From IMG/VR virus record IMGVR_UViG_3300046011_008537: DNA of 64,000 bases. One strand, 5' to 3'. Source of the stretch: a virus (Duplodnaviria; Heunggongvirae; Uroviricota; Caudoviricetes). The notes under the pieces are model-generated. The model was not told where the DNA came from. It saw only the letters and a program-made list of their open reading frames with translations, and made no database searches. Positions within the stretch are counted from its first letter, which is position 1. Each line of letters opens with the position of its first letter. Of the stretch, positions 27,156 to 58,710 are shown piece by piece. The position numbers were made by a program, and so were the translations under genes.

Positions 27156-27232
27156 CTCCCATTAGCTCAGTCTGGTAGAGCGATCCGTTTGGGGCGGATA
27201 GGTCGGCAGTTCGAATCTGTCATGGGAGACCA
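27156..27232 (+). tRNA. tRNA-Pro (anticodon TGG), encoded CCA
   Basis: Full cloverleaf: CTCCCAT/ATGGGAG acceptor, GCTC/GAGC D-stem, ATCCG-TTTGGGG-CGGAT, GGCAG-TTCGAAT-CTGTC. Confidence 0.85.
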
Positions 27233-27233
27233 A

Positions 27234-34168: not shown

Positions 34169-34441
34169 ATGTCTTATAGCCGTTGGTCTTGTTCAGATTG
34201 GTATGCATTTCATACAACTGAATCCGGTGAAACAAAAGAAACTCAAAAACTAGCTTTATGGTATGCTGGAGCTGATGAAAATCCAATTTATACCTATGAA
34301 GAATTAAAAGTAATTACGCCAGAAATAATTAGAGCAAGGTGTGATATGGAAATTGGTGAAAGTAATATGGAAGAAGCGTTTTATATTATAAAGCAATTTA
34401 TATTTGATATTGATGATGAATTTAACCCTGATAAAAAATGA
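34169..34441 (+). CDS. hypothetical protein
   Basis: 90 aa. RBS GGAGG. Confidence 0.3.
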   Translation: MSYSRWSCSDWYAFHTTESGETKETQKLALWYAGADENPIYTYEELKVITPEIIRARCDMEIGESNMEEAFYIIKQFIFDIDDEFNPDKK

Positions 34442-34950
34442 AAGATAAATTTGTTAAATACTTTATGGATGTCGCCGAGAGAACTGCTCAGTTGTCCTAT
34501 GCGACTCGTTTACAAGTTGGTACGGTCATAGTAAAGAATAATCGTATCATTAGCTGTGGGTACAATGGAATGCCTGCAGGGTGGACGCCTAATGATTGTG
34601 AATATCCAGTTTCTATTGATAATGTTGAATTTTCAAAATTACCTCTTGACGAACAAGCTAGATTCACGTATAATTTCAATAAAAATGAGTGGGAAGGATT
34701 AAAAACCTATGATGAGTTAATTCATTCTGAAGCAAATGCAATTAGTCAGTTAGCGCGTTCAACAGAATCTGGTATAGGTGCAACAATTATTTGTACTCAT
34801 AGTCCTTGTTTACAGTGCGCAAAAATTATATACAGTTCTGGTATAAAAACTTTATATTATAAAAACGAATATCGTTCAGCCGCAGGTATTCGTTTTCTTG
34901 AAAAATGCGGTGTTAAAATATATAAAATTGAGGAAGAAAATGACAGTTAA
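34438..34950 (+). CDS. cd: dCMP deaminase
   Basis: Zinc motifs HSEANAI and CTHSPCLQCAK (H(A/C)E...PCxxC). Confidence 0.8.
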   Translation: MKDKFVKYFMDVAERTAQLSYATRLQVGTVIVKNNRIISCGYNGMPAGWTPNDCEYPVSIDNVEFSKLPLDEQARFTYNFNKNEWEGLKTYDELIHSEANAISQLARSTESGIGATIICTHSPCLQCAKIIYSSGIKTLYYKNEYRSAAGIRFLEKCGVKIYKIEEENDS

Positions 34951-37793: not shown

Positions 37794-38876
37794 ATGAGTT
37801 TGTTAGATAAAATTAAAAAGAATAGTACAATTAAAGAAACTTCGGTTCTTTCTAAATCAAAATTCTTTGTTGATAAAGATATGATTCAAACGCCAATTCC
37901 AATTATTAATGTGGCTTTATCTGGTTCATTAGATGGAGGGTTTACTCCTGGATTTACTATGTGGGCTGGTCCAAGTAAACATTTTAAAACTGCATTTAGT
38001 TTATTAATGGCTAAATCGTATATGGATAAATATCCAGAATCAGTTTTGTTATTTTATGATTCAGAGTTTGGTACGCCGCAATCATATTTCCAATCTTTTG
38101 GTATTGATATGGATAGAGTGATCCACACTCCTCTTAAAAACGTCGAGGAATTGAAGTTTGATATAATGAATCAGATTGATAATATTGTCCGTGGAGATCG
38201 AATTCTTATCCTTATAGACTCTATTGGTAATTTGGCTAGTAAGAAAGAAGTTGATGATGCCTTAGATGGTAAATCAACAGCTGATATGACAAGAGCTAAA
38301 CAATTAAAATCTTTGTTTAGAATGATTACTCCTCATTTAATGTTAAAAGATATTCCATTGGTAGCTGTTAATCATACCTATAAAACAATGGAACTTTATG
38401 CAAAAGATGTTGTTGGTGGCGGTACTGGTTCATATTATGCAGCTGATAACATTTATATTTTAGGTCGCCAACAAGAAAAAGAAGGAACTGAAGTAATTGG
38501 ATATAACTTTATTATTAACGTTGAGAAATCTCGATATACCAAAGAGAAATCTAAAATTCCAGTTTGCGTAAGTTTTAAAGGTGGTATTAGTAAATGGTCT
38601 GGTTTAATTGATTTAGCATTAGAATCTGGTATCGTTATTAAACCGAGTAATGGTTGGTATCAAAAAGTTAATTTAGCAACTGGTGAACTTTTAGAGAAAA
38701 AATATCGATTAAAAGAAACTGAATCTGCTGAATTTTGGGATCCTATTTTGGAAAGCACTCAATTTAAAGCATTTATTGAAAGTAAATATAAAGTATCTCA
38801 TGGAGATATTTTTGGTAATGATATTGATGAAGATATTGATGCTGTATTTGCTGATGAGGAATTGGAAGATGCATAG
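37794..38876 (+). CDS. uvsX: recombinase UvsX (RecA-like)
   Basis: Near-colinear with T4 UvsX (GPSKHFKT Walker A, FYDSEFG, IDSIGNLASKKE). Confidence 0.9.
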   Translation: MSLLDKIKKNSTIKETSVLSKSKFFVDKDMIQTPIPIINVALSGSLDGGFTPGFTMWAGPSKHFKTAFSLLMAKSYMDKYPESVLLFYDSEFGTPQSYFQSFGIDMDRVIHTPLKNVEELKFDIMNQIDNIVRGDRILILIDSIGNLASKKEVDDALDGKSTADMTRAKQLKSLFRMITPHLMLKDIPLVAVNHTYKTMELYAKDVVGGGTGSYYAADNIYILGRQQEKEGTEVIGYNFIINVEKSRYTKEKSKIPVCVSFKGGISKWSGLIDLALESGIVIKPSNGWYQKVNLATGELLEKKYRLKETESAEFWDPILESTQFKAFIESKYKVSHGDIFGNDIDEDIDAVFADEELEDA

Positions 38877-39072
38877 ATTAACTAGAATTGATATTAATGA
38901 TATTTTTTATGTAACGCTTATTATTAGTTTTCTTTGTTGGACAATAGCATCTTGGTTTACTCATATTATAGTTTGTATTAACAATAAAGAATGGTTATTT
39001 TTAATTGCCGGAGCCATAATGGCTCCAATTGCGTGGGTTCATGGAACTGGCGTTTGGTTTAATGTTTGGTAG
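38870..39072 (+). CDS. small membrane protein (2 TM)
   Basis: ATG overlapping uvsX stop (ATGCATAG). Hydrophobic segments. ORF-track longer start at 38776 lies inside uvsX. Confidence 0.3.
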
Positions 39073-39081
39073 GAGAAAAAA

Positions 39082-39420
39082 ATGGTTGACGAAAGAACAG
39101 TTGTAGAGTATAATTTCATTGAGGTCAATGGAGCAAATGGATTAAAATTAGAATCCGGTGAATTTGACGGGGTTATCGTAACATTAAGCGATCTTAGTGT
39201 TCAAGATGATGGTACAGATAATCCAGATGGATCTGCTGTGTTAAGTTTTAATTATGATGTCGTTTATGACGCCGAAAAACCAAAAGAATTATTTGAAACT
39301 ATAGATTTTAAAAATACTATAGGTGATATATTAATGAAAATTCTTACTGACAGTATTAAAGAAGCAGGAGAAAATATTGAATCTGAATACGCTGATTTTG
39401 AAGAACCTTCATTACTCTGA
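39082..39420 (+). CDS. acidic hypothetical protein
   Basis: 112 aa. RBS GGAG. Confidence 0.3.
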   Translation: MVDERTVVEYNFIEVNGANGLKLESGEFDGVIVTLSDLSVQDDGTDNPDGSAVLSFNYDVVYDAEKPKELFETIDFKNTIGDILMKILTDSIKEAGENIESEYADFEEPSLL

Positions 39421-40774
39421 AGAATTTACGAGAAAAGTATTACCTTTTTTAAGGGCAGATTATTTTAATGATAGAAATGAACGAACAATTTTTAACGAGA
39501 TTAGTTCGTTCATTACAAATTATGGAAATATTCCAACATATGAAGCTCTTATTATTCAGTTAAATGAAAAAACAGTTTCCGAAGAAGAACATAAAGAAAC
39601 TCTTACATTATTAAATGAATTGCATGAAGCTAAATCTGAAACTGTAGATTTGGAATGGTTAGTTGATAAAACGGAAACTTTTTGTCAAGACCAAGCAATC
39701 TTTAATGCTGTTAGAGAATCTATTACAATTCTCGATGGAAAACATAAAGATTTATCAAAAGGAAGTATTCCTACGTTATTATCTGAAGCATTATCTGTTT
39801 CTTTTGACTCAAGCGTTGGTCATGATTATTTGGGTGATGCTGATAGCCGTTATGAATATTATCATAGAACTGAAGAAAAAGTTCCTTTCGGGCTAAACTA
39901 TTTTAATCTTATAACAAATGGTGGATTACCAAAGAAAACTTTAAATGTTATCTTAGCTCCACCTCATGGCGGTAAAAGTTTAATGATGTGTAACTTTGCA
40001 GCTGATTTTCAAACAGCAGGTAAAAATGTTTTATACATAACTTGTGAAATGGCTGAAGAAGAAATTGCAAAACGTATTGATGCTAATTTGCTTAGAATAT
40101 CTATGGATGATTTAATGCAAATGGATAAATCGTCTTTTGATAAAAAGATTAATTATGTTAAATCAAAAACTGTTGGTAAGTTATTTGTCAAAGAATACCC
40201 AACAGCTGCAGCTAATGTAAATCATTTTAGAACTTTATTAAATGAATTGCGTTTAAAAAAGAATTTCGTTCCAGATGTAGTGTTTATTGATTATTTAAAT
40301 ATTTGTGCTAGTTCTAGAATGAAGATGTCTGGTAGTATCAACACTTATACATATATTCAGGCTATTGCGCAAGAATTGCGTGGCTTTGCTCAGGAGTTTA
40401 GTATTCCTGTTGTAACAGCAACTCAGACAACTAGAAGCGGATCTCAAAGTAGTGATGTTGATATGAGTGATGTATCTGAATCATTTGGTGTTCCTGCTAT
40501 TGCTGATTTTATGTGTGCAATCATTAACAGCGAAGAATTATATGATTTAAATCAAATGATGATTAAACAGTTAAAAAATCGTTATAGAGATTTAAATTTA
40601 AATAAACGATTTGTTGTTGGTGTTGATCGAGCTAAAATGAAATTGTTTGATGTTGAACAATCAGCTCAGGAAGGTATTACTGATGCTGGAAGCATGGATC
40701 CATCTGAGTCGTATAAATCTATGCAAAAACAAAATAAATTTGAAAAGAAATCATTTGATGGGTTTAAAGTATGA
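39377..40774 (+). CDS. 41: replicative DnaB-like helicase gp41
   Basis: Aligns with T4 gp41: Walker A APPHGGKS, ISMEMAEE, RQ finger region. Confidence 0.85.
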   Translation: MNLNTLILKNLHYSEEFTRKVLPFLRADYFNDRNERTIFNEISSFITNYGNIPTYEALIIQLNEKTVSEEEHKETLTLLNELHEAKSETVDLEWLVDKTETFCQDQAIFNAVRESITILDGKHKDLSKGSIPTLLSEALSVSFDSSVGHDYLGDADSRYEYYHRTEEKVPFGLNYFNLITNGGLPKKTLNVILAPPHGGKSLMMCNFAADFQTAGKNVLYITCEMAEEEIAKRIDANLLRISMDDLMQMDKSSFDKKINYVKSKTVGKLFVKEYPTAAANVNHFRTLLNELRLKKNFVPDVVFIDYLNICASSRMKMSGSINTYTYIQAIAQELRGFAQEFSIPVVTATQTTRSGSQSSDVDMSDVSESFGVPAIADFMCAIINSEELYDLNQMMIKQLKNRYRDLNLNKRFVVGVDRAKMKLFDVEQSAQEGITDAGSMDPSESYKSMQKQNKFEKKSFDGFKV

Positions 40775-41490
40775 CAAAAAGTGCAGTAGTAATAATTCCA
40801 ACAACAGGAGCTGATACTCTTATAGAAACAATTGAGAGTGTTGCCAAACAAACATATGATAATGTTACTGCCCTTATTGTGGTTGATGGAAAACAATTTG
40901 CATCTAAAGTAAGGAAACTGCTTTTAGGTAAAGGTTTTAGTATTCCTTTGCGAGTTGAATATCTAGATGAAAATGTTGGAGCTAACGGCTTTTATGGTCA
41001 TAGGATTTATGCAGCTTATTCTCATTTAGTTAATGAGGATTATATTTTCTTTCTTGATCAAGATAATTTGTTTGAGTCAAATCATATTGAAACTATGATT
41101 GCTAAATTAGAATCAACTAATTCTGATTGGGCGTATAGTTTGCGTAATATTTGCGATAAAAATGGAAATTATATTTATCAAGATAATTGCGAAAGTTTAG
41201 GTAAATGGGAAGCATGGACTAATTGTTATCATATAGATACTAATTGTTATTGTTTTTCAAATAAAGTTGCTGTTACTATTGCGGGAGCTTGGCACGGCGG
41301 ATGGGGTCAAGATAGAATTGTATTCCAGGCACTAAAACAATATTTTCCTAATTTTGAATGTTCTAACTATTATACAGTTAATTATAGGCTTGATGGTAAC
41401 GAGGGATCTGCTACTAAAGATTTTTTTGAGCATGGAAATAAATTAATGAGCGAAAAATATAATAATAAATTTCCATGGAGTAAAATATGA
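40771..41490 (+). CDS. family 2 glycosyltransferase
   Basis: N-terminal VVIIPTTGADTLIETIESVAKQTY and DxD (LDQD). Overlaps gene 41 by 4 nt. Confidence 0.65.
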   Translation: MTKSAVVIIPTTGADTLIETIESVAKQTYDNVTALIVVDGKQFASKVRKLLLGKGFSIPLRVEYLDENVGANGFYGHRIYAAYSHLVNEDYIFFLDQDNLFESNHIETMIAKLESTNSDWAYSLRNICDKNGNYIYQDNCESLGKWEAWTNCYHIDTNCYCFSNKVAVTIAGAWHGGWGQDRIVFQALKQYFPNFECSNYYTVNYRLDGNEGSATKDFFEHGNKLMSEKYNNKFPWSKI

Positions 41491-42140
41491 AAATTGATAT
41501 ACATACATTATATTGGAATAATGGAGAATATTTAATTAAATCGCAAAAAAAAGTAATGGATCATTTTCAAATACCAGTAATATATCATAATTTAGATGAT
41601 TATCCACACGGTAAATGGATGGATGAAGTTCTTGAAAACAGTACGTCAGATATTGTTGGATTTTTTGATAATGATTGCGTCCCTTTAAATAGACAAATTG
41701 TTGATTATGCAATAAATTATGTTGCAACAAATAAAACGTTTATTGGTACAGCTCAAGTATCAAATCATATTGCGCCATATTCGCATATATTTGCTGCTCC
41801 GTGTTTTTTCTTTATTTGTCGAGAAGCATGGATACAGCTTGGTAAACCTTCTTTTTCTGAAAATACAAGATCAGATGTTGCTGAAGAAGTTTCTTATAGA
41901 GCTGAAGAACATAAATTATCATATAAAGCTTTATATCCAACTCATTTTGAGCGAGAATCAACAGAAGGTATTTGGAAATTAAGTAACTATGGATATTTTG
42001 GTATAGGAACTGTTTTTGCTAATTCCATCTATCATTTATATCAAGGTCGTTTTAAACAAAATGCAGATTTATTTGCTAAACGTTGCCAAGAAATAATTGA
42101 TGGTACGTTTACTACAAACGGTATGCGTAATTCAATTTAG
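41487..42140 (+). CDS. hypothetical protein (possible transferase)
   Basis: 217 aa. DNDC motif. 4-nt overlap coupling. Confidence 0.3.
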   Translation: MKIDIHTLYWNNGEYLIKSQKKVMDHFQIPVIYHNLDDYPHGKWMDEVLENSTSDIVGFFDNDCVPLNRQIVDYAINYVATNKTFIGTAQVSNHIAPYSHIFAAPCFFFICREAWIQLGKPSFSENTRSDVAEEVSYRAEEHKLSYKALYPTHFERESTEGIWKLSNYGYFGIGTVFANSIYHLYQGRFKQNADLFAKRCQEIIDGTFTTNGMRNSI

Positions 42141-42149
42141 GAAATAATT

Positions 42150-42962
42150 ATGAGTAAAATTAGTATAGTAACTGCTTTTTTTGATATTGGTAGGGGAGAA
42201 TGGACTCCAGATAAAGGATTGCCTCATTATTTACAAAGATCTACTGATGTTTATATCAAAAGGTTTTCTTATTTGTTGAACTTAGATACAGATATTACTG
42301 TTTATACATCTCCTGACCTTGTTAATACGTTGACAGAATTAAGCGTTGGTAAATTAGCAAAAACAACTATAGTTGGAATTGATTTATCTGAATTTGATAG
42401 TATAAAAGAACGTATTGTAGATATTCAGCAAAACGAATTATTTAAAAATAGTATTTCTCCGAATCAGCTAAAAAATCCTGAATATTGGAATTCAGATTAT
42501 GTATTGGTTACTAACTTAAAAGCATATTTCGTCGATTTATCTATTAAAAATGGATTATCTAAAAATGATATGGTTGCTTGGATTGATTTTGGTTATTGTA
42601 GAAGCGAACAAAATATACCACAAAGTAATTCCTGGGAATATAATTTTGACCCAACAAAACTTCATTTATTTGCATATAAGCAATATGATGGTAAAAATAT
42701 ATTAGAAATAATTGCAACAAATGATGTATACATACTTGGAGCTAAAGTTGTTGCGCATAAATCTATGTGGTCAATTATGGCACAATTAATGAAATCTTCT
42801 CAAGATAAATTATTTGAAAATAATTTTGTTGATGACGATCAAGGTTTATGGTTAATTTCCAGTTTAATGGAACCCTATTTATTTGAGTTGCATACAATAC
42901 CAGATCATCAATTAGGTGGAGATCCTTTTGTTTTGTTTAACGAGTTTAACGATACTGTATGA
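42150..42962 (+). CDS. HtrL/YibB-like (LPS-core-associated) family protein?
   Basis: N-terminal IVTAFFDIGRGEW pattern. Confidence 0.25.
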   Translation: MSKISIVTAFFDIGRGEWTPDKGLPHYLQRSTDVYIKRFSYLLNLDTDITVYTSPDLVNTLTELSVGKLAKTTIVGIDLSEFDSIKERIVDIQQNELFKNSISPNQLKNPEYWNSDYVLVTNLKAYFVDLSIKNGLSKNDMVAWIDFGYCRSEQNIPQSNSWEYNFDPTKLHLFAYKQYDGKNILEIIATNDVYILGAKVVAHKSMWSIMAQLMKSSQDKLFENNFVDDDQGLWLISSLMEPYLFELHTIPDHQLGGDPFVLFNEFNDTV

Positions 42963-44341
42963 ATAAATTAATAATTTTTGATTTAGATGGCGTTTTAATA
43001 GATTCTAGGAATTTACATTATTATGCTTTAAATGAAGCATTAAGTCATATTGATGATAGCTATACTATAAGTATAGAAGAGCATTTAAGCGTTTATGATG
43101 GATTAAATACTACAAAAAAGCTTAAATTATTAACTCAAACTAAAGGTTTAGAACCTAAACATTATGATACTATTTGGGAAAATAAACAAAATGCTACATT
43201 TAAATATATAAAAGAATTTCAGGAACACTTTTTATTACAAAAGATATTTGCTAAAATAAAAAATAGAGGTTATAAAATTGCTGTTGCTAGTAACTCAATA
43301 AGAGAAACTGTAAAATTATCTTTATTGAGTATCGGTGTATTAGAATTTGTTGACTATTACGTTAGTAATGAAGATGTAACTAGAACTAAACCATATCCAG
43401 AAATGTATTGGAAATGTATGATAGCTATGAATGCTCTTCCTAAAAATACAATAATTGTTGAAGATAGTCATATTGGTAGACAAGGAGCTATAGATTCTGG
43501 CGCGCATTTATTAGCAGTTGATGATTCTCATGAAGTTAATTCAGAACATATATTAGATAGGATTTATAATATGATGGATAAAATCGAAGGAGTTGGTAAA
43601 AAGCCTTTGCCATGGAAAGATACAAAATTAACAGTATTAATTCCAATGGCTGGCGCGGGTAGTAGGTTTTCTGCTGCAGGTTATACTTTCCCTAAACCTT
43701 TAATTGAGGTTAGAGGAAAACCTATGATTCAAGTTGTTGTTGAAAACTTGAATATAGAAGCTAATTATGTATTTTTAGTACAAAAAGAACACTATGAGCA
43801 ATACAATTTAAAATATTTGTTAAATTTAATTGCGCCAAATTGTGAAATTGTATTGGTTGATGGTATTACTGAAGGTGCTGCTTGTACAACTTTATTAGCT
43901 AAAAAGTATATTAATAATGATAATCCATTGGTTATGACTAATTCTGATCAATTTATTGAATGGAATTCTAATGAATGTTTATATGCATTTTCAGCTGATG
44001 CTATTGATGGAGGTATATTAACATTTAATGCTACACACCCTAAATGGTCATATGCTAAAGTCGATGAAACTGGTTTTGTTTCTGAAGTTGCAGAAAAGAA
44101 AGTTATATCTGATCAAGCAACAGTAGGAGTTTATTATTGGAAAAAAGGTTCTGATTATGTTAAATATGCTGAACAAATGATTGAAAAGGATATACGAACT
44201 AATAATGAGTTTTATGTATGTCCAGTATTTAATGAAGCTATTGCTGATGGTAAAAAAATACGAGTAAAAACTGTTGAAAAAATGTGGGGTATTGGTACTC
44301 CTGAAGATTTAAATTATTTTCTAGATAATCATAAAGAATGA
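42959..44341 (+). CDS. bifunctional HAD-superfamily phosphatase/phosphomutase + sugar-phosphate nucleotidyltransferase
   Basis: N-term HAD motif I LIIFDLDGVLIDS and motif III/IV region. C-term NTase G-loop LIPMAGAGSRF and PKPLIEV. Confidence 0.6.
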   Translation: MNKLIIFDLDGVLIDSRNLHYYALNEALSHIDDSYTISIEEHLSVYDGLNTTKKLKLLTQTKGLEPKHYDTIWENKQNATFKYIKEFQEHFLLQKIFAKIKNRGYKIAVASNSIRETVKLSLLSIGVLEFVDYYVSNEDVTRTKPYPEMYWKCMIAMNALPKNTIIVEDSHIGRQGAIDSGAHLLAVDDSHEVNSEHILDRIYNMMDKIEGVGKKPLPWKDTKLTVLIPMAGAGSRFSAAGYTFPKPLIEVRGKPMIQVVVENLNIEANYVFLVQKEHYEQYNLKYLLNLIAPNCEIVLVDGITEGAACTTLLAKKYINNDNPLVMTNSDQFIEWNSNECLYAFSADAIDGGILTFNATHPKWSYAKVDETGFVSEVAEKKVISDQATVGVYYWKKGSDYVKYAEQMIEKDIRTNNEFYVCPVFNEAIADGKKIRVKTVEKMWGIGTPEDLNYFLDNHKE

Positions 44342-45141
44342 AAAACATTATATTTTTTATAACTCATAAAACATTAGGCGTTGAACACGCTACAGCTTGT
44401 TTTTATAGTTTATCTAAACAAGAAAATGTTTCTGGTAAATTTGATGCCTTATATATTTACAATACGCACCAAGATGAATTATCAAATGATACGTTAATAG
44501 ATTTATACGAAAAATTTAATTTAAATACTTTTTTTGCTGAAATTAAATTATTTGATTATAATCCTAATACCGAAAAGGCATTAGGTGCAGATATATCAAC
44601 TATTAGAAATTACGTTACGGAAAATTATGTTCAAGAAGATAGAGTTTTATTATTAAAATCTGATTGCCTTTTATCTAAAAATTATTTTAGCGATATTCTT
44701 TCTTTACCTGTAGATATTCCCGCATATTTTGTTGCTCCATTTATTTGTGCAAAAGAAAGAATAACTGATACTGAAATATTTGAATATATTTCTAGAGATT
44801 CGTATATTCAGTCAGATGATATAACGTTTTTTGTGGAAGATCAAATAGGTAGTAGTAATAATGATTTTAATAACCGTCCTGAAGTAAATATAACTGATAA
44901 TAGCATAAAATTTACTTCTTGTTATGTTATTAGAGATTTTTCTTGTCATTTCCTTTCTGTTGGATTATTTGATTTCGTACATATAGCTGTTCAGAGTTGG
45001 GGTGGGGTTAATTTTTCTTCTTTATTTAAGTATTTTATTGGAACTAATCGAAGTTTTGTAGTTCACAAATATCATAGTATTGTTAGTGAAAACAGAGTTA
45101 CAGATAGAGAAGGTCCAGTTGTTTCTTGGTTAAAGAGTTAG
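44338..45141 (+). CDS. hypothetical protein
   Basis: 267 aa. Overlap-coupled. Confidence 0.3.
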   Translation: MKNIIFFITHKTLGVEHATACFYSLSKQENVSGKFDALYIYNTHQDELSNDTLIDLYEKFNLNTFFAEIKLFDYNPNTEKALGADISTIRNYVTENYVQEDRVLLLKSDCLLSKNYFSDILSLPVDIPAYFVAPFICAKERITDTEIFEYISRDSYIQSDDITFFVEDQIGSSNNDFNNRPEVNITDNSIKFTSCYVIRDFSCHFLSVGLFDFVHIAVQSWGGVNFSSLFKYFIGTNRSFVVHKYHSIVSENRVTDREGPVVSWLKS

Positions 45142-45144
45142 TGT

Positions 45145-45810
45145 ATGAGAATAGCAGTTTTAATAGCAGGTCATATAAGATCATGGGATTTTTGTAAACA
45201 AAATTTTTTAGAAAATTTGTATAACGCCAATCATCAAATTGATGTTTTTGTTGACACGTATAATGAAATTTTTAGGTCAGATTATCATCTTCATAAAGAA
45301 TATGAAATGAATATTATTAAAAATTCTGATCAAATTAAACAAATGTTTTCTGGTATTAATGTTGTAAATTTTGGTATAGAACCTGAGGTTGTTGGACCCC
45401 CTCAAGATATGCAAAAAAGAAAATTATTACGAGTATTTAATGATTTTTTACAACATGAAAATATTTATGGAACATATGATTTAGTTATAAGATATAGATT
45501 TGATATATTATTAAATAAACCTTTAAATTATGAATATATATTACAAGAATGTACCAATAATCCTAAATTAATTTTTATTGGTGATGGTGCTGTTCATATG
45601 CCGCAAAACGATATGATGGCAATATGTAATTTCGATGCATTTAAAATATATTTAAATAGATTAAATACTTATCCATATCAACTTGATCCAATGATACATC
45701 ATTATAGTATGGATCATTTAATAGCAGATTTTGGAATTGAATATAGCCAAACAATTGGTATTTCTATTGTTAGGCTTGATGGTAATAAAAATTATAGGAT
45801 TGAAAAATAA
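45145..45810 (+). CDS. uncharacterised putative transferase, paralog A
   Basis: Paralogous to 46511-47182 (IAVLIAGHIRSW/TAILLVGNIRTW; YDLVIRYRFD/YDLVIKTRCD). Confidence 0.35.
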   Translation: MRIAVLIAGHIRSWDFCKQNFLENLYNANHQIDVFVDTYNEIFRSDYHLHKEYEMNIIKNSDQIKQMFSGINVVNFGIEPEVVGPPQDMQKRKLLRVFNDFLQHENIYGTYDLVIRYRFDILLNKPLNYEYILQECTNNPKLIFIGDGAVHMPQNDMMAICNFDAFKIYLNRLNTYPYQLDPMIHHYSMDHLIADFGIEYSQTIGISIVRLDGNKNYRIEK

Positions 45811-46514
45811 TGGTGAATTTATATAATAATGAATCAGATATACATGATAATCAAAATATTTATGATTCGTTTAATAATTTTATTTTTAGTAATGATAGAA
45901 ATGTTTTTAATAAATTACATAGTAAATTTGAATTTTACGATAAAACAAAACATTTACTTGGAGATATTGTAGAATGCGGGGTATTTAAAGGTTCTGGTTT
46001 ATTATCTTGGTTGAAAATTTTGGATATTAATGAACCGCATAGTATTAAAAAGGTTATGGGTTTTGATTTTTTTAATCCATCATTTGTAGATGAATTAAAA
46101 GATGAAACTGATAAACGAACAATGCAACAAGTTTTTGATCGAGATAAAGATTTAGATTTAAATTCTATTTCATATGATGGTATATCTAAAAAAATTATTT
46201 CAGCTGGATTTAATACTTCTAAGTTTGAATTGATACAAGGTGATGTTAGTAAAACTTCTAAACAAATTGTTGTTTCTAGACCTGGATTTAGAATTAGCAT
46301 TTTATATCTTGATATGGATTTAGCAGAACCAACATATGATGCATTAGTTAATTTTTGGGATAATATTGTTTCAGGTGGTATTGTTGTATTTGATGAATAC
46401 GCATATCATAGTTGGAGCGAAGCTAATGGGGTAGATAAATTTATAAGAGAATTTGGTATTGAATTACATAGAACAAATATTAAAGCCCCTACTGCATATA
46501 TTATTAAACCATGA
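45810..46514 (+). CDS. TylF/MycF-type SAM-dependent O-methyltransferase
   Basis: ECGVFKGSG glycine-rich SAM motif and C-terminal GGIVVFDEY pattern of macrocin O-methyltransferase family. Confidence 0.55.
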   Translation: MVNLYNNESDIHDNQNIYDSFNNFIFSNDRNVFNKLHSKFEFYDKTKHLLGDIVECGVFKGSGLLSWLKILDINEPHSIKKVMGFDFFNPSFVDELKDETDKRTMQQVFDRDKDLDLNSISYDGISKKIISAGFNTSKFELIQGDVSKTSKQIVVSRPGFRISILYLDMDLAEPTYDALVNFWDNIVSGGIVVFDEYAYHSWSEANGVDKFIREFGIELHRTNIKAPTAYIIKP

Positions 46515-47182
46515 AAACTGCAATATTATTAGTTGGAAACATAAGAACTTGGTCTTATTGTAAAGAAAATTTTTTACAAACATTTGGACATTTAAATCCT
46601 GATATTTTTGTGTCGACGTATAATTTACAGTATAATCATCATCCATATATACGAAATTTAATTGGAGATAATGAAGATGCATGGCTAACCAATGAAGAAA
46701 TTGCTGATATTTTTTCTGGAATTAATGTTAAAAATATTAGTATTGATAGTAATTTACATTATAATTTGCCTGAAGATGTTAATAGTTTATTTACCGGATT
46801 AGAAACTACATTTTTTCAATATCTTAAATTTTTTCAATCTGTTCAAATAATGAATGAATATGATGAATATGATTTGGTTATTAAGACTCGTTGCGATTTA
46901 TTATATAACCCAATTAATTTTGATAATGTTTTAAATTCTATTATTATTGATTCGGGTAATGTTTATCCTAATGATTGTATTTTAATCGCAAATAAAAATA
47001 ATATTGTAAATATTTCTGAATTTATTATGCAAGAATTTTTTAATCCAATATATAGCAATAGTCATGATACTCCTCCACATGGACTATTGTGTAATGCTAT
47101 TAACCATTTAAATATTCCTGTTCAGCAACAAAAAATTATGAATTGTGTTGTTAGAAAGGGAAATAAAATACAACAATATTAA
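46511..47182 (+). CDS. uncharacterised putative transferase, paralog B
   Basis: See paralog A. Confidence 0.35.
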   Translation: MKTAILLVGNIRTWSYCKENFLQTFGHLNPDIFVSTYNLQYNHHPYIRNLIGDNEDAWLTNEEIADIFSGINVKNISIDSNLHYNLPEDVNSLFTGLETTFFQYLKFFQSVQIMNEYDEYDLVIKTRCDLLYNPINFDNVLNSIIIDSGNVYPNDCILIANKNNIVNISEFIMQEFFNPIYSNSHDTPPHGLLCNAINHLNIPVQQQKIMNCVVRKGNKIQQY

Positions 47183-47183
47183 T

Positions 47184-47630
47184 ATGAAAATTATATCGCA
47201 TAGAGGAAATTTAACTGGACCTTGTTCAGATACAGAAAATCATCCCGATCAAATTAATTTATGTATATCTAAAGGATATGATGTAGAAATTGATTTGTGG
47301 TTTATAGATGGAGATTATTTTCTAGGGCATGACACTCCAACTTATAAAACTTCTTTTAGTTTTTTATTGGAAAGAAAGGATAAATTATGGATTCATTGCA
47401 AAAATCAAGATGCTGTATTTGCGTTGAATAACACTGGATTTAATTATTTTTGGCATCAAGAAGATGATATTACATTAACTTCTCAAGAATTTATTTGGGC
47501 TTATCCAGATAAGCATGCAAAATATTTTAAAAACCTTGTTATATTGGATTTTACAAAAAACGTTAATTTTGATTTTTATAAAAGCCGTGGAGTATATGCA
47601 GTTTGCATTGATTATATTATAGGTAATTAA
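47184..47630 (+). CDS. glycerophosphodiester phosphodiesterase (GDPD)-family protein, short form
   Basis: HRGN...TENHP...DVEIDLWFIDGDYFLGHD pattern of GDPD catalytic motifs. Start at MKIISHRG; ORF-track start at 47145 rejected. Confidence 0.45.
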   Translation: MKIISHRGNLTGPCSDTENHPDQINLCISKGYDVEIDLWFIDGDYFLGHDTPTYKTSFSFLLERKDKLWIHCKNQDAVFALNNTGFNYFWHQEDDITLTSQEFIWAYPDKHAKYFKNLVILDFTKNVNFDFYKSRGVYAVCIDYIIGN

Positions 47631-47631
47631 A

Positions 47632-48600
47632 ATGAAAATAGCTTTTCAAACGAATACAATTTGTCATAGAGGTACCACTGTGGCAATTTTAGATTATGCA
47701 AAATATAATCAGGAAATTTTAGGTAATGAGAGTATAATTGTTTATCCTACAAATTTTAGTGATTCTGGAGTTAGTTCTGATTCATTAACGCAACAAGATG
47801 TTTTGGTGGAAGTTAAGAAACAATTTACCGTAATCGGTTATACTTCTCTTGCTGAATTGGATAAAATAGTAGAAGATAATAATGTTGATGCTACTTATTT
47901 TATTAAAGGTGGATTTAATGATGGTTTAGTTACAACAAAATCTAAAAATTTAATTCATGCAGTATTTCAGGCTAATCAGCCTCATGGAGACAAATATGTT
48001 TATATCTCAGAATGGTTGTCTGATTATGTTAGTAATGGTAAAATTGATTTTGTTCCACATATAGTTGATTTACCAAAAACTAAACAAACTAATTTTAGAG
48101 AAAAATTAGGAATAGATAAAAATAAAATAGTTGTTGGTCGAATTGGTGGGTTGCGCCAATTCGATATTCCTTTTGTGTTAGAAACTATTGCTCAATTTGC
48201 ATACAAAAATTTAGATTATGTTTTTGTATTTGTAAATACATTTAAATTCATTAATTTGCCAAATGTTATATTTATTGATCCAATAATTGATGAACAAGAA
48301 AAAACTGATTTTATTTTATCTTGTGATGCGATGATTCATGGTAGAAGCGATGGAGAATCTTTTGGTTTAGCTATTTGTGAAGGGTTATTTCATAATAAAC
48401 CTGTATTTTGTTTTAATGGTGGTCGTGATAAACATCATATAACTTTATTAAAAGATAGTGGATTATTATATAATAATGCTATTGAATTGCGCGATATGTT
48501 ACTTAATGTTAAATTATATAATAAAAATTATTCTAAATTAGTAGAAAAATTTAACCCGCATACAGTTATGGAAAAGTTTAAAACCGTTTTCCTTGATTAA
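47632..48600 (+). CDS. GT4-like (retaining) glycosyltransferase
   Basis: E-x7-E motif region GRSDGESFGLAICEGLFHNKPVF. Confidence 0.55.
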   Translation: MKIAFQTNTICHRGTTVAILDYAKYNQEILGNESIIVYPTNFSDSGVSSDSLTQQDVLVEVKKQFTVIGYTSLAELDKIVEDNNVDATYFIKGGFNDGLVTTKSKNLIHAVFQANQPHGDKYVYISEWLSDYVSNGKIDFVPHIVDLPKTKQTNFREKLGIDKNKIVVGRIGGLRQFDIPFVLETIAQFAYKNLDYVFVFVNTFKFINLPNVIFIDPIIDEQEKTDFILSCDAMIHGRSDGESFGLAICEGLFHNKPVFCFNGGRDKHHITLLKDSGLLYNNAIELRDMLLNVKLYNKNYSKLVEKFNPHTVMEKFKTVFLD

Positions 48601-48606
48601 AAGTGC

Positions 48607-48635
48607 TTGACAATATAGATGTTTTATATTATAAT
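48607..48635 (+). promoter_or_regulatory. early-type promoter TTGACA-17-TATAAT (upstream AAGTGC element) inside the sugar island; 7-bp inverted repeat ATAGATG/CATCTAT brackets the -10
   Basis: Perfect consensus hexamers. Confidence 0.6.
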
Positions 48636-48663
48636 AGGGCATCTATTTAAAAAAAGGTGATAT

Positions 48664-49569
48664 ATGAAAGTATTGGTTACTGGTGGTTGCGGTTTTATTG
48701 GAAGTCATTTAATTGATGCACTAGTTGACTCTGGTTATACCGTTGTTAATGTTGATGATTTGTCAGCTGATAATGATCAATTTTATTTTAATGAAAACGT
48801 TAAAAATTATCATTTTGATATTTGTAATACTAAACAATTAATTTCAGTTAGTAAAGGGTGTGAATTTATATTTCATTTAGCCGCTGAATCTAGATTAGGT
48901 GCTTCTATTGCTAATCCAAGAAAGGCAATTGATTCTAATATTAAAGGCGTTGTTTCTGTATTAGAAGCAGCAAAAGCAAATAAGATTAAAGGTATTGTTT
49001 TCTCTTCAACTTCTTCAATATATGGATTAAATACAAATTTTCCATTAAAAGAAACTGAGCGAGAAGATTGTTTAAACGCATATGCATCAACTAAATATGC
49101 AGCAGAATTATTTTTGAGAAACTATTATGAAATTTACGGAATTAAATCAGTTATTCTTCGCTATTTTAATGTTTATGGCGAACGTTCTCCCAAATCTGGC
49201 CAATATGCGCTAGTATTGGGTATCTTTGAAAAATTATTAAAAGATGGTAAACCATTAACAGTTACTGGTGATGGAACCCAAGAGCGAGATTTTATACATG
49301 TAAAAGATATTGCTCAGGCTAATATACGGTGTATTGCTAATTTTGATGCAAACCCAGATATGTGGAAAGCTCAAGTATTTAATATTGGATATGGACAAAC
49401 AAAAACTATTAATGAAATTGCTAATACTTTATCAGATAGTATTGTTTATATTAAAAAACCCGCTGGTGAGGCATTAAATAATTTATCAGATAATACTAAA
49501 TTTAAGTTAGCAACAGATTGGGTTCCAACTATAAATGTGCTTGACTGGATTAAAGAAAAACTATTATAA
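48664..49569 (+). CDS. NAD-dependent sugar epimerase/dehydratase (GalE-like SDR)
   Basis: Rossmann VLVTGGCGFIGSHL and catalytic YASTKYAAE (YxxxK). Confidence 0.8.
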   Translation: MKVLVTGGCGFIGSHLIDALVDSGYTVVNVDDLSADNDQFYFNENVKNYHFDICNTKQLISVSKGCEFIFHLAAESRLGASIANPRKAIDSNIKGVVSVLEAAKANKIKGIVFSSTSSIYGLNTNFPLKETEREDCLNAYASTKYAAELFLRNYYEIYGIKSVILRYFNVYGERSPKSGQYALVLGIFEKLLKDGKPLTVTGDGTQERDFIHVKDIAQANIRCIANFDANPDMWKAQVFNIGYGQTKTINEIANTLSDSIVYIKKPAGEALNNLSDNTKFKLATDWVPTINVLDWIKEKLL

Positions 49570-49614: not shown

Positions 49615-50787
49615 ATGCTAAGTTTTAAAGATTTTCTTGTTGAGAACGAGGAAGAAGGTGCTAAATTAAAGCACATTAAACATCCAGAAGATAGAGTTTT
49701 TGAAGGTTCAAATGGATATGCTCATGCTCGAGGTGCATTGCATCATGCGCATGATGCAATTAAATCTGGAGAACATAGCACTAACCTTACCATGAAATAC
49801 GATGGATCTCCTTCCATCGTATATGGTCATCATCCAGAGAATGGTAAATTCTTTGTGGCAAGCAAATCTGCATTTAATAAAAATCCAAAAATAAATTATA
49901 CTCACGAAGATATTGAGCAAAACCATGGCCATGCTCCTGGATTAGTTGAGAAGTTAAAAGATTCGTTGGATCATTTACATAAAATTACTCCAAAAAAGGG
50001 TGTATATCAAGGCGATTTAATGTTTAGTGGAGATGATAAGAAACATAATGATAATGGATCCGTATCATTTACTCCAAATACAATTAAATATACTGCTCAC
50101 GGCGAAGAAGCAGATAAAGTTAAAAAAGCAAAATTAGGTGTTGTTACTCATACTCAGTATCATGGAGATACCTTATCTTCTATGAAAGCTGATCCTCATC
50201 CAGATTTACATAATTTTAAATCTCATGATCATGTTTGGAGTAAAACTCCAGAACATGATACCAAAAACGTTCATTACAGCGAATCTGATCAAGCTAAATT
50301 TCAAAAACATATGGATGCCGCTGATAAAATTCATAAAGCGCATAAAGATACTATATATGATTCTACAGCACCTCATGGTGGTGACAGTGGGCATTTAGCG
50401 ACATATATTAATCATACGGTTAGAACTGGCGAAAAACCTTCTGCAGATGGATTGCAGAATCATATAGCAGGTAAATATGAAAAACAAATTGATAAGTTAA
50501 AAAGTGATGCAGGTAAAGCTAGAAAACATACTGAACTGACTAGTCATCTATCTCATATTGCTGGTAATTCTGATCATTATAATCGTTTATTAAAAATGCA
50601 TGGCCATTTACAGTCGGCTAAAAATATTTTAACCAAAACATTAAATCAACATGAAGGTGGATTAGAACACCATATTGGTGACAAAAGAACTAATCCGGAA
50701 GGATTTGTTATTCATCATAATGGAGAACCAACTAAACTTGTTAATAGAGAAGAATTTTCTAAAGCTAATTTGTTAAAGGTACGTTAA
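49615..50787 (+). CDS. His-rich protein with possible nucleotidyltransferase-ligase-like motifs (KYDGS...EGFVI); function unknown
   Basis: Motif I-like TMKYDGSPS (compare T4 Rnl1 TKEDGSLVS) and motif IV-like EGFVIHH near C-terminus. Long His/Lys/Asp-rich middle. Late promoter. Confidence 0.3.
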   Translation: MLSFKDFLVENEEEGAKLKHIKHPEDRVFEGSNGYAHARGALHHAHDAIKSGEHSTNLTMKYDGSPSIVYGHHPENGKFFVASKSAFNKNPKINYTHEDIEQNHGHAPGLVEKLKDSLDHLHKITPKKGVYQGDLMFSGDDKKHNDNGSVSFTPNTIKYTAHGEEADKVKKAKLGVVTHTQYHGDTLSSMKADPHPDLHNFKSHDHVWSKTPEHDTKNVHYSESDQAKFQKHMDAADKIHKAHKDTIYDSTAPHGGDSGHLATYINHTVRTGEKPSADGLQNHIAGKYEKQIDKLKSDAGKARKHTELTSHLSHIAGNSDHYNRLLKMHGHLQSAKNILTKTLNQHEGGLEHHIGDKRTNPEGFVIHHNGEPTKLVNREEFSKANLLKVR

Positions 50788-51410
50788 TGAGCACTAAAAA
50801 TCCTGTTGTTACTGCTTTTGGTAGAATGAATCCACCTACAACTGGGCACTTACAGTTAATTAATGCTGTTCGTTCTACTGCAGAAAAAGAAAATGCTGAT
50901 CATGATATTATCGCTTCAGGTAGTCATGATCCAAAGAAAAATCCATTAACTTCAGAACACAAATTAAAACATTTATCTAGATATTCTCCTGGAACTAATT
51001 TCTCGGTAGCGGATTCTAAATCCCCAACATTATTACATCATTTATCTAAATTACACGATAAAGGTCATGATCATTTAATTTATGTTGCGGGTTCGGATCG
51101 CACAAAAGGTATGGAAGAATTAATACATAAATATAATGGAGTACCTTCTAAACATGGATATTATAATTTTAAAAAAATAGAAGTACGTTCTGCTGGACAT
51201 AGAGATCCAAATGCAGAAGGAACTGCTGGTATGTCTGGAACTAAAATGCGAGAATTTGCTAAAAACAATGATTTTCATTCATTTAGACAAGGAGTTCCAT
51301 CTCACGTTTCAGATGATCATGCAAAAGAATTGATGAGTGATGTTAAATCTGGTATGAATGTTCATGAATCATATATTCGTGGATTTTTAAACAAAATAAG
51401 ACTATTTTAA
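50787..51410 (+). CDS. HxGH nucleotidyltransferase (NadM-type NMN adenylyltransferase-like / cytidylyltransferase superfamily)
   Basis: AFGRMNPPTTGHLQLI (GRxxPxHxGH) and downstream SGTKMRE (ISSTxxR-like). Confidence 0.55.
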   Translation: MSTKNPVVTAFGRMNPPTTGHLQLINAVRSTAEKENADHDIIASGSHDPKKNPLTSEHKLKHLSRYSPGTNFSVADSKSPTLLHHLSKLHDKGHDHLIYVAGSDRTKGMEELIHKYNGVPSKHGYYNFKKIEVRSAGHRDPNAEGTAGMSGTKMREFAKNNDFHSFRQGVPSHVSDDHAKELMSDVKSGMNVHESYIRGFLNKIRLF

Positions 51411-51411
51411 A

Positions 51412-52221
51412 ATGCAAAATAAACAAGCAATTTTTATTATCGGATCTCCTGGATCCGGAAAGGATGTCGTAATTAGAGATATTGCATCTAATTACGGTAT
51501 TGTAGAATTTACGTCAACTCAAATTGATGAGATGTTGTATAATGACGCAGTATTTAAACGAGCTAAATCGGAAAAACAAGATTCTCTTTTAGAAAGATAT
51601 TCCATACTCGTTACTGGAAATTTATTCGATCTGGGGTTTGTTATAACTAAAGATATATTAGAAACAATTGGTTATACAACGCATTTAATTGTTGTTGAGG
51701 CTAATTTAGGAATTGCTGTAGAACGATTAAAAGATAGAAAAAATTTAAAAGAATCATTGGATAGAATTAGTGTTGGAAATGCAAATAGACAAGCAATTAT
51801 TAGTTTATTTAACTCTTATATTACTGTGGATAATTCAAAATCATTGGATTTAACTGAATCAAGAGAATTTATTTATGATATTTTAGAAGATTTAACATTT
51901 AAATCAGATTTACGTTTAGAAGAAATTGTAAAAATTAATTTGAAGAAAAAGGTTAATAAAATTGTTCCATTAAAACTTCCTGCTGATTCTTCTGATACTA
52001 GAAGTATGACTCCAGGAACATGGTCTGTTTATAATGGAGTTGCTGAATCAGTTGAATCGCCTAATTATGATATTTCTCCAATAGCTACTGGTCCTATGCA
52101 AAGTACCGCGTCTTCAACAGTTAGTATGCAATCTGATCAAGATAAAGAAAATACTAGAAAAGTGTTGAATAAAATTAAAAAAATAAATTTTAAAAAGGTG
52201 GTTCCCCGTGGAATTGGATGA
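51412..52221 (+). CDS. P-loop kinase (adenylate/nucleoside/polynucleotide-kinase-like) with disordered C-terminal tail
   Basis: Walker A IFIIGSPGSGKD. About 150-aa kinase-like core then low-complexity tail. Confidence 0.5.
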   Translation: MQNKQAIFIIGSPGSGKDVVIRDIASNYGIVEFTSTQIDEMLYNDAVFKRAKSEKQDSLLERYSILVTGNLFDLGFVITKDILETIGYTTHLIVVEANLGIAVERLKDRKNLKESLDRISVGNANRQAIISLFNSYITVDNSKSLDLTESREFIYDILEDLTFKSDLRLEEIVKINLKKKVNKIVPLKLPADSSDTRSMTPGTWSVYNGVAESVESPNYDISPIATGPMQSTASSTVSMQSDQDKENTRKVLNKIKKINFKKVVPRGIG

Positions 52222-58299: not shown

Positions 58300-58710
58300 A
58301 TGAGTAAAGTTGAATTAAAAGATTATGAAGCATTTGTCCAATCAACAATTTCACAACCATCGTCAATTTTTGGTATTCTGGAATCAAGGTTGAGCGAATT
58401 GGATGGTAATAAATTAGGAATTTTAATTCCTGAATTATTAACTGCTTCTTTTGGTTTAACTGCTGAGGCAGGTGAATTTACTGAAGTTGTTAAGAAAATC
58501 GTATTTCAAGGTAAACCGCTAGATGAAGATAATATCTTTCACTTGAAGCGCGAATTAGGTGATATTTTATGGTATGCAGTTGTTGCTTGTAATGCATTAA
58601 ATATTACGTTAGAAGATGCTATTGTAATGAACGTCGAGAAGTTATCTGCTAGATATCCGCAAGGTTTTGATATTATTAAATCAGAAGTTAGACAAGAAGG
58701 TGACGTGTAA
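58300..58710 (+). CDS. mazG: MazG-like nucleotide pyrophosphohydrolase
   Basis: EAGEFTE...ELGDILWY pattern. Confidence 0.7.
   Translation: MSKVELKDYEAFVQSTISQPSSIFGILESRLSELDGNKLGILIPELLTASFGLTAEAGEFTEVVKKIVFQGKPLDEDNIFHLKRELGDILWYAVVACNALNITLEDAIVMNVEKLSARYPQGFDIIKSEVRQEGDV

Follow-up and report, generated by a model that had tools for sequence, protein, structure and literature searches.

The 64-kb stretch of DNA analysed here (the window), from IMG/VR virus record IMGVR_UViG_3300046011_008537, is part of the genome of a T4-like myovirus from aquatic metagenomes, with ∼30% G+C, in which the structural and replication genes keep the T4 core order. Its replicative helicase, gp41, shares 54-55% identity with gp41 of cyanomyoviruses. 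Directly after gene 41, 11 co-directional open reading frames (ORFs) on the plus strand fill positions 40771-49569 (8.8 kb); this sugar island and its counterparts in related phages are the subject of the present analysis, in which functional calls were made from sequence and predicted folds. The genes and features of the locus are as follows.

39377-40774, plus strand: gp41 replicative helicase (DnaB_C, 7.5e-23), the conserved left flank
40771-41490, plus strand: GT2-family glycosyltransferase (PF00535, 3.7e-12), a semi-conserved left arm
41487-42140, plus strand: 217-aa protein, not assigned to a family, invariably paired with the GT2
42150-42962, plus strand: HtrL/YibB-family protein (PF09612, 9e-53; NCBIfam YibB, 7.6e-69, under the equivalog cut-off)
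42959-44341, plus strand: fusion of a HAD (beta-phosphoglucomutase-like) domain and a sugar-1-phosphate nucleotidyltransferase, abbreviated HAD-NTase (HAD_2, 5.6e-26; NTP_transferase, 2.6e-11)
44338-45141, plus strand: 267-aa ORF with no detectable family (profile searches empty)
45145-45810, plus strand: GT-A-fold transferase, paralog 1 (phmmer 2e-17 to 46511-47182; weak DUF7796 match)
45810-46514, plus strand: TylF-type O-methyltransferase (PF05711, 4.3e-11)
46511-47182, plus strand: GT-A-fold transferase, paralog 2 (from a structural model)
47187-47630, plus strand: minimal GDPD-like protein, or mini-GDPD (ATG start; alternative GTG at 47145)
47632-48600, plus strand: GT-B-like (GT4-type) glycosyltransferase (weak: Glycos_transf_1, 1.5e-3, below the Pfam cut-off; NCBIfam GlcN_PG_synth, 1.2e-7)
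48607-48635, plus strand: putative promoter, sigma-70 consensus TTGACA-17-TATAAT (12/12 match)
48664-49569, plus strand: GalE-like NAD-dependent sugar epimerase, 301 aa (PF01370, 3e-54), the conserved right arm
49615-50787, plus strand: DUF6267 protein (PF19782, 9e-100), the right flank marker and not a sugar gene
55178-56179, plus strand: gp61 primase (tblastn to 2420 phage records, mostly annotated as DNA primase; best 43% identity, 2e-71)

Neighbouring ORFs of the island mostly overlap by 1-4 nt or are separated by gaps of 1-9 nt, and the first one overlaps the end of gene 41 by 4 nt. This co-directional, overlap-coupled layout had been described in an earlier reading made from the DNA alone (the sequence-only reading) and is confirmed here. 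Profile matches likewise confirm its GT2, its transferase-like HtrL/YibB ORF, its HAD-NTase fusion, its TylF methyltransferase and its GalE-like epimerase, and the two transferases it considered paralogous match each other in phmmer. The 267-aa ORF was missing from its gene list. Its GT4 call is matched weakly, and the feature it termed a perfect early promoter stands as a consensus match, putative in function, with no other TTGACA-17-TATAAT site within 38.8-56.3 kb. The island had also been placed between gene 41 and primase gene 61. The next ORF is that of DUF6267, and the position of the primase gene means that the 41-61 interval spans 14.4 kb, of which the first 8.8 kb are sugar genes; the 5.6 kb between the island and gene 61 hold other genes (DUF6267, a cytidylyltransferase-like and a P-loop kinase-like gene, and others).

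The HAD-NTase, which further matches the bPGM family (5.5e-24) and PDB entry 4evw (3e-15), is predicted to make a nucleoside diphosphate (NDP)-sugar. The 217-aa ORF has no Pfam, PHROG, NCBIfam or PDB match, and its product is possibly a transferase. HtrL/YibB is a family linked to lipopolysaccharide (LPS)-core loci, and a search listing places htrL in Acinetobacter outer-core loci; a PDB sequence search with the HtrL protein returned nothing useful. The GT-A fold of the protein at 45145-45810 is taken from the model of its paralog at 46511-47182, and a TylF domain is fused to one homolog (P0152) of the neighbouring GT-A protein. For the ORF at 47187-47630, called a GDPD-family enzyme in the sequence-only reading, there is no Pfam match at E 0.1 and no PDB sequence match. 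It matches phrog_34507 (2.6e-32), its more than 1000 homologs share the invariant residues H5, R6, E17, N18, E34, D36 and H48 (HR..EN..ExD..H), and the top Foldseek matches of its AlphaFold2 model (pLDDT 95.3) are the GDPD structures 1v8e and 1vd6 (E 1.5e-4, TM ∼0.5). With 147 aa versus ∼220-250 aa for GDPD enzymes, the protein would be a trimmed GDPD-like barrel and a putative member of the family at most, and the glycerol-phosphate decoration raised in the sequence-only reading is hypothetical. The gene content as a whole supports a set of soluble NDP-sugar enzymes, ∼6 glycosyltransferase-like proteins and an O-methyltransferase, in agreement with the sugar-building toolkit proposed earlier.

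Neither a megablast search of the island against isolated phages nor a tblastn search of phages with the GT2 (40771-41490) gave a match. The same island gene order is found on independent JGI, Logan and IMG/VR contigs, and the island is therefore real and not an assembly artefact; its ORFs are conserved at 98-100% between independent samples. Proteins 98-100% identical to those of the island are also encoded on an 8-kb contig (L104, CAZYEM010000195.1) included in a metagenome-assembled genome labelled 'uncultured Bacteroides sp.', a placement that is probably a binning artefact and not a host signal.

Contigs that match the window at 95-100% identity in gp43, UvsX and gp41 have other genes in place of the island interior. 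To the right of the island core, they again share 92-100% identity with the window in the epimerase, DUF6267 and the following gene. Among close relatives gp41 is 95-99%, the epimerase 92-97% (across cassette types) and DUF6267 97-99% identical. The GT2 occurs in every cassette variant, at 64-86% identity where gp41 is 95-99% identical, and so does the 217-aa ORF, at 62-69%. DNA similarity to relatives with the type-B cassette (below) ends at 42137-42165, the 3' end of the 217-aa ORF, and restarts at 48648, which delimits an exchanged core of 6.5 kb (∼42.14-48.65 kb) whose right edge lies just past the consensus at 48607-48635. The G+C content of this core (27.3%) is the second lowest among 113 equal-sized windows. 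Within the core, the GT-B is 79% identical in one contig (L008) and 35% in another (L010), and ORFs similar in size to the 267-aa one follow or adjoin the HAD-NTase module in the variants. At least four cassette types, A-D, were found at the site in phages whose UvsX protein is identical in every residue.

Cassette A: the island of the window, 40771-49569
Cassette B: GDP-mannose-dehydratase-like SDR, DUF8361, second GT2, GT-B, GHMP kinase, SIS isomerase, HAD/cytidylyltransferase
Cassette C: cupin, methyltransferases, HAD-NTase, HtrL, GT-A and mini-GDPD, in a different order
Cassette D: GNAT, DegT aminotransferase, HtrL, HAD-NTase, TylF

Every variant is composed of donor-sugar genes and transferases, and cassette B is, as judged from its genes, a (deoxy)heptose pathway. 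On this comparison, the island is one allele of a hypervariable, O-antigen-like locus between gene 41 and DUF6267 in a large aquatic T4-like clade, which the term 'inserted', used in the sequence-only reading, understates. That cassettes are exchanged among phages sharing the same UvsX is consistent with diversifying selection acting on a molecule exposed to defence. The resemblance to Wzx/Wzy O-antigen loci extends to the conserved flanks, the replaceable low-G+C core, the donor genes with matching transferases and a methyltransferase, and the pairing of HAD-NTase with mini-GDPD, which is common to both. Unlike those loci, the phage variants carry no WecA/WbaP-type initiator, Wzx, Wzy, WaaL or ABC transporter. 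None of the 46 cassette proteins of the four variants is polytopic (two or more hydrophobic 19-mers), and the four cassette types lack any initiating phosphoglycosyl transferase, flippase, polymerase, ligase or transporter. A self-contained O-antigen pathway was rejected on the grounds of these missing membrane components.

A second set of genes in the window bears on what the sugars may be attached to.

17066-18484, minus strand: TET/JBP (5mYOX) dioxygenase (PF12851, 2.1e-24, above the 34.9-bit cut-off)
15406-16215, minus strand: TET-associated glycosyltransferase, TAGT (PF20691, 2.6e-11, 44 bits versus a cut-off of 27.5)
26129-26923, plus strand: Anp1-like (GT-A) glycosyltransferase (weak Anp1 match, 5.9e-5)
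27189-27866, plus strand: gp1-like dNMP kinase, DNMK (PF21448, 6.4e-16), the usual fourth member of TET-TAGT-GT-DNMK

The TAGT and TET genes lie directly after the major capsid gene, separated solely by an optional 240-aa ORF. A phage-encoded TET/JBP enzyme with an adjoining JGT-like GT-A is a defining feature of 5mYOX glycosylation clusters, and the pair is a member of this known 5mYOX-plus-glycosyltransferase kind; it is also found in the phages S-CBWM1 and Cr30. In many other T4-like lineages the order is TET-TAGT-Anp1-like glycosyltransferase-DNMK, the last two corresponding to 26129-26923 and 27189-27866 of the window, and the Anp1-like protein is a candidate second DNA glycosyltransferase. 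Phage TET-like enzymes (5mYOX) carry out post-replicative hydroxylation of 5-methylcytosine or thymine in DNA, and their partner glycosyltransferases load mono- to trisaccharides onto the new hydroxyl (PMC8256090; 10.1101/2023.12.21.572611). Most 5mYOX have no C5-methyltransferase nearby and are presumed to act on thymine (PMC13229309). No PCQ-type motif of a C5-methyltransferase occurs in any frame of the 64-kb window, and the ORFs scanned gave no Pfam match to such an enzyme. Homologs of the window TET, close and distant alike, are followed by a glutamine amidotransferase (GATase), an amidoligase, an amino-acid:DNA transferase (AADT) and P-loop kinase 3. All four are genes acting on 5-hydroxymethyluracil (5hmU), and the kinase/AADT partners imply 5hmU. 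Because of the absent methyltransferase motif and the kinase/AADT partners of its homologs, the window TET is most likely a thymine dioxygenase that acts post-replicatively. The TAGT is predicted to start glycosylation of the hydroxymethyl base by attaching the first sugar, and glycosylated, base-J-like 5hmU is the most likely product in this phage.

DNA hypermodification had been named in the sequence-only reading as a main candidate, by comparison with the arabinosyl-5-hydroxymethylcytosine (hmC) of RB69. DNA stands as the best-supported target; the hmC route gives way to the post-replicative TET/TAGT route, and the comparison itself is dated, RB69 DNA containing arabosylated 5-hydroxycytosine and not hmC (PMC13326640). 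Neither a dCMP hydroxymethylase (ThyA homolog), nor a dCTPase, nor an alpha- or beta-glucosyltransferase was found among the scanned window ORFs or the window Pfam listings. T4-style glucosylation of hmC is unsupported, the hydroxymethylase and alpha/beta-gt not being found in the 64-kb window.

Several further observations concern the TET-TAGT region. The 240-aa ORF between the two genes (16361-17083, plus strand) belongs to no family and gave nothing useful in a PDB search. It is kept in some close relatives and missing in others (L062, L063, L065, L086). Unrelated contigs (L318, L328, L329) carry homologs with 47-53% identity close to TET/TAGT, encoded on the other strand. The behaviour of this ORF is that of an optional or mobile insert. 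In close relatives, TET shows 81-96% amino acid identity versus 95-99% for TAGT, 96-100% for UvsW and 92-100% for gp23, and falls into length classes of 460 and 472 aa. Directly past the dNMP kinase lies an FkbM-family methyltransferase gene (27869-28540; PF05050, 1.3e-15), missing there in contig L365, which could encode a second glycan methyltransferase.

The locus between gp41 and DUF6267 is itself used for DNA modification in related phages. In a large set of T4-like relatives, this slot contains TET together with GATase/AADT/P-loop kinase 3, or TET together with a GT-B, that is, DNA-hypermodification genes. In close relatives of the window, the slot beside TET itself alternates between TAGT, a GT-B and the AADT-kinase set. 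On single contigs, the islands can be paired with TAGT-type or GT-B-type contigs only, and the same-sample pairs (L015/L069, L153/L074) are not provably one genome each. A clade with gp41 ∼59% identical, represented by dozens of contigs, has gp41, DUF4338 (GNAT-like), a GT2 homolog at the head of the sugar locus, variable sugar genes and DUF6267, which thus ends the locus in distant clades as well.

Conversely, gene families of the locus adjoin TET-TAGT elsewhere. In contig L303 an epimerase homolog lies between TET and TAGT (33% identity by tblastn; phmmer 1.2e-30). In L298, L299 and L314-L317 a HAD/cytidylyltransferase-like gene homologous to that of type B stands beside TET-TAGT, and in L314-L317 a cupin (types C/C') follows 4-6 kb further down from TAGT. 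Homologs of the GT-B (GT4), the GT2 and the 217-aa protein are located within 12 kb of TET-TAGT in L308. In the cultured phage S-CBWM1, TET and TAGT are followed in series by a cytidylyltransferase-like gene, an NTase gene and one homologous to an ORF of the sugar locus.

Two side observations relate to these relatives. The gene after gp41 in the ∼59% clade encodes a 368-aa DUF4338 protein (PF14236; L198, 11389-12495), with homologs in L161, L170, L177, L200 and L209 and more than 6000 homologs found in all; it occupies the place held by TET in sister lineages. Pfam ties DUF4338 to Druantia DruA, and it has been described as GNAT-like (PMC10853773). Profile comparison of the protein with TET revealed no relationship, and PDB sequence searches with two ORFs of this clade returned nothing useful. 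The second concerns the cultured T4-like Caulobacter phage Cr30 (L289), in which TET, homologs of AADT and TAGT, and an inositol-1-phosphate synthase lie within 7 kb, a combination suggestive of a thymidine modification of mixed or unusual type.

The reading tentatively favoured here, with a probability somewhat short of even, is that the cassette makes donor sugars and extends a glycan on 5hmU in the phage DNA. It is preferred because TET is encoded next to TAGT in the same genome, because the slot holds DNA-hypermodification genes in relatives, and because the gene families of the locus adjoin TET-TAGT elsewhere. It is also preferred because all 46 cassette proteins are without multi-pass segments, unlike the products of the bacterial locus with the HAD-NTase/mini-GDPD pair (Wzx, Wzy-like, WecA; see below), and because the island is coupled translationally to replication genes and is without an internal T4-type late motif: the motif TATAAATA is absent within 40771-49569, and elsewhere in the window it precedes structural genes. 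Finally, there are experimental precedents, and cassette B is a predicted heptose pathway. Clusters linked to 5mYOX build mono- to trisaccharides on DNA, including heptose supplied via HAD/kinase and cytidylyltransferase, and heptosylated 5-hydroxymethylcytosine is made by HAD/kinase, cytidylyltransferase and GT-B enzymes (10.1101/2023.12.21.572611). In the T4-like phages RB69 and DLP3, tri-arabinosyl bases are formed via phosphatase, NTase-kinase, isomerase and GT-B enzymes (PMC13326640).

From these associations we infer DNA as the acceptor, and likewise each chemical step of the following scheme. The TET/JBP dioxygenase would convert thymine in replicated phage DNA into 5hmU, to which TAGT would add the first sugar; as in the epimerase-dependent GT-A class, the conserved epimerase may provide the donor. 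A special activated NDP-sugar would come from the HAD-NTase together with the mini-GDPD, and the chain would be extended by the GT2, its 217-aa partner, HtrL, both GT-A paralogs and the GT-B, with the possible participation of the Anp1-like glycosyltransferase (26129-26923). The TylF enzyme would then O-methylate the glycan. Exchange of the 6.5-kb core would alter the glycan and thereby allow escape from host nucleases or glycosylases that recognise a given DNA glycan. An extension of this scheme, which is doubtful at present, is the existence of DNA 'serotypes': a replaceable cassette of abundant aquatic T4-like phages would build strain-specific, O-methylated oligosaccharides on base-J-like 5hmU, such that near-identical phages differ mainly in their DNA glycan. 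Host enzymes recognising glycosylated DNA would exert a frequency-dependent selection that maintains this diversity.

A number of observations weigh against DNA as the acceptor. The island lies 23 kb from TET-TAGT and is not clustered with the dioxygenase, which departs from a defining feature of 5mYOX clusters and makes the link between the two indirect. TAGT is 93-99% identical in close relatives irrespective of the cassette; being constant while the cassette changes, it could be unrelated to it. The ∼59% clade has the sugar locus, with no TET seen within 10 kb, although the TET scan covered the best 80 of 195 loci and no contigs of this clade were among them. In a contig of a close lineage (L068), TET occurs with AADT/kinase and without TAGT, the contig stopping before gene 41. 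The six or seven transferase-like genes exceed what any known DNA glycan, at most a trisaccharide, would call for. In cultured cyanomyoviruses (S-CAM9, S-PRM1, B3 and others) that carry a related cluster, in which the HAD-NTase is 64-66% and the mini-GDPD 43% identical, tblastn finds no TET/TAGT. The last of these points comes from bacteria. The mini-GDPD is an obligate neighbour of a sugar-1-phosphate-type nucleotidyltransferase, and its gene is adjacent to that of the HAD-NTase in ∼45 bacterial/archaeal genome-collection loci (Pelagibacteraceae, SAR86, Prochlorococcus, Fonsibacter, Methylophilaceae and others). One such locus was annotated in detail: in the complete chromosome of Methylophilaceae LSUCC0401 (L116), the pair lies inside an O-antigen locus with rmlBDA, GT2, epimerase, Wzx, GT2, a 7-TM Wzy-like protein, WecA and ManC.

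The same pair also speaks for an explanation based on the host envelope, in which the cassette would act on host lipid-linked intermediates of O-antigen, capsule or lipooligosaccharide, using the flippase and polymerase of the host, and would thereby alter the surface glycotype, for example to block superinfection by competing phages. Apart from the ∼45 adjacent pairs and the rml-GT-Wzx-Wzy-like-WecA locus of LSUCC0401, this explanation draws on the connection of HtrL/YibB to LPS-core loci and on the related cyanomyovirus clusters, which are without TET/TAGT and lie amid host-metabolism genes; early or middle expression of the genes would fit it as well. It is also the published view of pelagimyophage glycosyltransferase genes, taken to modify the host O-chain (PMC7029224), and of structural variants in marine phages (PMC12379486). 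The statement in the sequence-only reading that host surface modification is less likely is not established, given the ∼45 pair loci, one of them an O-antigen locus, and the cyanomyovirus clusters without TET/TAGT. Remodelling of the envelope is nevertheless considered unlikely, since no initiator, flippase, polymerase, ligase or transporter occurs in any of the four cassette types, and a lytic phage would have to match its transferases to a host intermediate outside its control. Moreover, it leaves unexplained both the DNA-hypermodification genes in the same slot of relatives and the cassette families beside TET-TAGT elsewhere.

On some large contigs, the mini-GDPD is also found alongside a RuBisCO-like protein. 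In two of them (L101, 324 kb; L103, 260 kb) the mini-GDPD and NTase occur with RuBisCO-large-subunit-like, DUF7796, DUF6071, radical-SAM and carbamoyltransferase genes, together with eukaryote-type GT7/GT10/GT11/GT17 genes; both possibly represent glycan loci of giant viruses or jumbo phages.

Virion glycosylation occurs in some mycobacteriophages and chloroviruses, and the soluble transferases of the cassette might likewise act in the cytoplasm on capsid or tail proteins, with cassette exchange varying the particle surface. The solubility of all cassette enzymes is compatible with this proposal, hypervariability suits a surface-exposed molecule, and TAGT homologs occur in mycobacteriophages and Arthrobacter phages. 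The position of the island is not: it belongs to the replication module and is coupled to gene 41, no structural gene adjoins it, and the late motif that is present before structural genes elsewhere in the window is absent from 40771-49569. A protein acceptor is without positive evidence, and this proposal is regarded as quite improbable.

A soluble glycoconjugate as the end product (a compatible solute, a decoy or a sink for sugars that drains the LPS precursors of the host), or a selfish island of largely neutral effect, is judged very unlikely. Several ORFs have no assignable function, and phage DNA glycosyltransferases have been discussed as a means of sequestering sugar donors (10.1101/2023.12.21.572611). 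Against this, the ORFs are intact, overlap-coupled and 98-100% conserved across independent samples, and donor and transferase genes are organised together in every variant, which argues for a selected, polymer-building function.

Comparison with known systems places the island between categories; without dioxygenase clustering and without membrane machinery, it is filed neither as a 5mYOX cluster nor as an O-antigen locus. It would work like an O-antigen cassette stripped of its membrane steps, located in a slot that relatives use for DNA hypermodification. Like the 5mYOX glycan clusters (PMC8256090; 10.1101/2023.12.21.572611; PMC13229309), the window has a TET/JBP gene adjoining a GT-A, an epimerase partner and a possible second glycosyltransferase. 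Donor genes (HAD, cytidylyl-/nucleotidyltransferase, heptose pathway) are phage-encoded in this system too, and the absence of a C5-methyltransferase motif from the 64 kb would assign it to the thymine subclass. Unlike in those clusters, a distance of 23 kb separates the sugar block, situated between gp41 and gp61, from TET-TAGT, and the block is exchanged as a cassette between near-identical genomes. The clusters tested have one or two glycosyltransferases and yield trisaccharides at most, versus ∼6 transferase-like genes and an O-methyltransferase in the window.

The system of RB69 and DLP3, which yields poly-arabinosylated 5-hydroxycytosine (PMC13326640), resembles that of the window in belonging to T4-like phages and in combining a phage-encoded NDP-sugar pathway (phosphatase, NTase, isomerase) with several glycosyltransferases that build an oligosaccharide on a base. 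It is pre-replicative, with a ThyA-like 5hodCMP synthase, a dCTPase and full replacement of cytosine, whereas the window shows no ThyA homolog among the ORFs scanned, and has a post-replicative TET and other sugar genes. Thymidine hypermodification clusters (5-hmdU DNA kinase and AADT; PF18751, PF18724) share with the window the gp41-DUF6267 slot, or a place next to TET by gp23, and the same kind of TET (55-81% identical); in place of their kinase and AADT, the window has glycosyltransferases.

The LPS-like clusters of cyanomyoviruses and pelagimyophages (S-CAM9, S-PRM1; PMC7029224) also comprise an epimerase, several glycosyltransferases and small ORFs in a plastic region of a T4-like genome. 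The clusters of marine myoviruses, and structural variants with glycosyltransferase/heptose genes, have been reported and left unexplained (PMC7029224; PMC12379486). Unlike the island, the cyanophage clusters lie amid photosynthesis and carbon-metabolism genes and not after gp41, with no TET/TAGT match. P-SSM2 is a further phage with an LPS-like gene cluster. Exchange of cassettes between near-identical genomes is not described for such clusters in the literature consulted, where no description of the association with TET/TAGT was found either.

If DNA is the acceptor, the diversity of phage DNA glycans would be organised like that of O-antigens, with conserved flanks, swappable cassettes and several alleles per population, and the glycans would surpass all those measured to date in length and in decoration, methylation included. 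The 'LPS genes' of marine and freshwater myoviruses, now routinely scored as auxiliary metabolic genes for the host envelope, would have to be reread. If the host envelope is the target, the locus would be a clean case of a lytic phage with a membrane-independent O-antigen toolkit. On either reading the system is directly testable, as the conserved TET, TAGT and epimerase and the at least four natural cassettes suit the published E. coli reconstitution assay.

The surroundings of the island include further genes. A conserved trio past the island (49615-52221) consists of DUF6267, a cytidylyltransferase-like protein and a P-loop/zeta-toxin-like kinase. By eye, DUF6267 holds a KYDG stretch resembling the KxDG motif of nucleotidyl-transferase ligases, and in contig L094 it is fused with the cytidylyltransferase-like part; the three genes may work in the repair of RNA or nucleic acids and not in sugar metabolism. 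A small ORF located between uvsX and gene 41 (38776-39072; 98 aa from TTG, 67 aa in other calls) is conserved in relatives; its product, with two strongly hydrophobic segments, is the sole membrane-like protein in the vicinity of the island. Further genes of the window are a divergent ThyX-like ORF (57217-58101; Thy1, 2.5e-7), MazG (58300-58710) and dCMP deaminase (34438-34950). Two close relatives have an interrupted DNA polymerase gene (L374, 5859-9904; L376, 1679-5724), in which ORFs with faint matches to MTES_1575 and weak intein-splicing ones come after a polymerase part of 696 aa; gp43 of the window is an uninterrupted protein of 838 aa.

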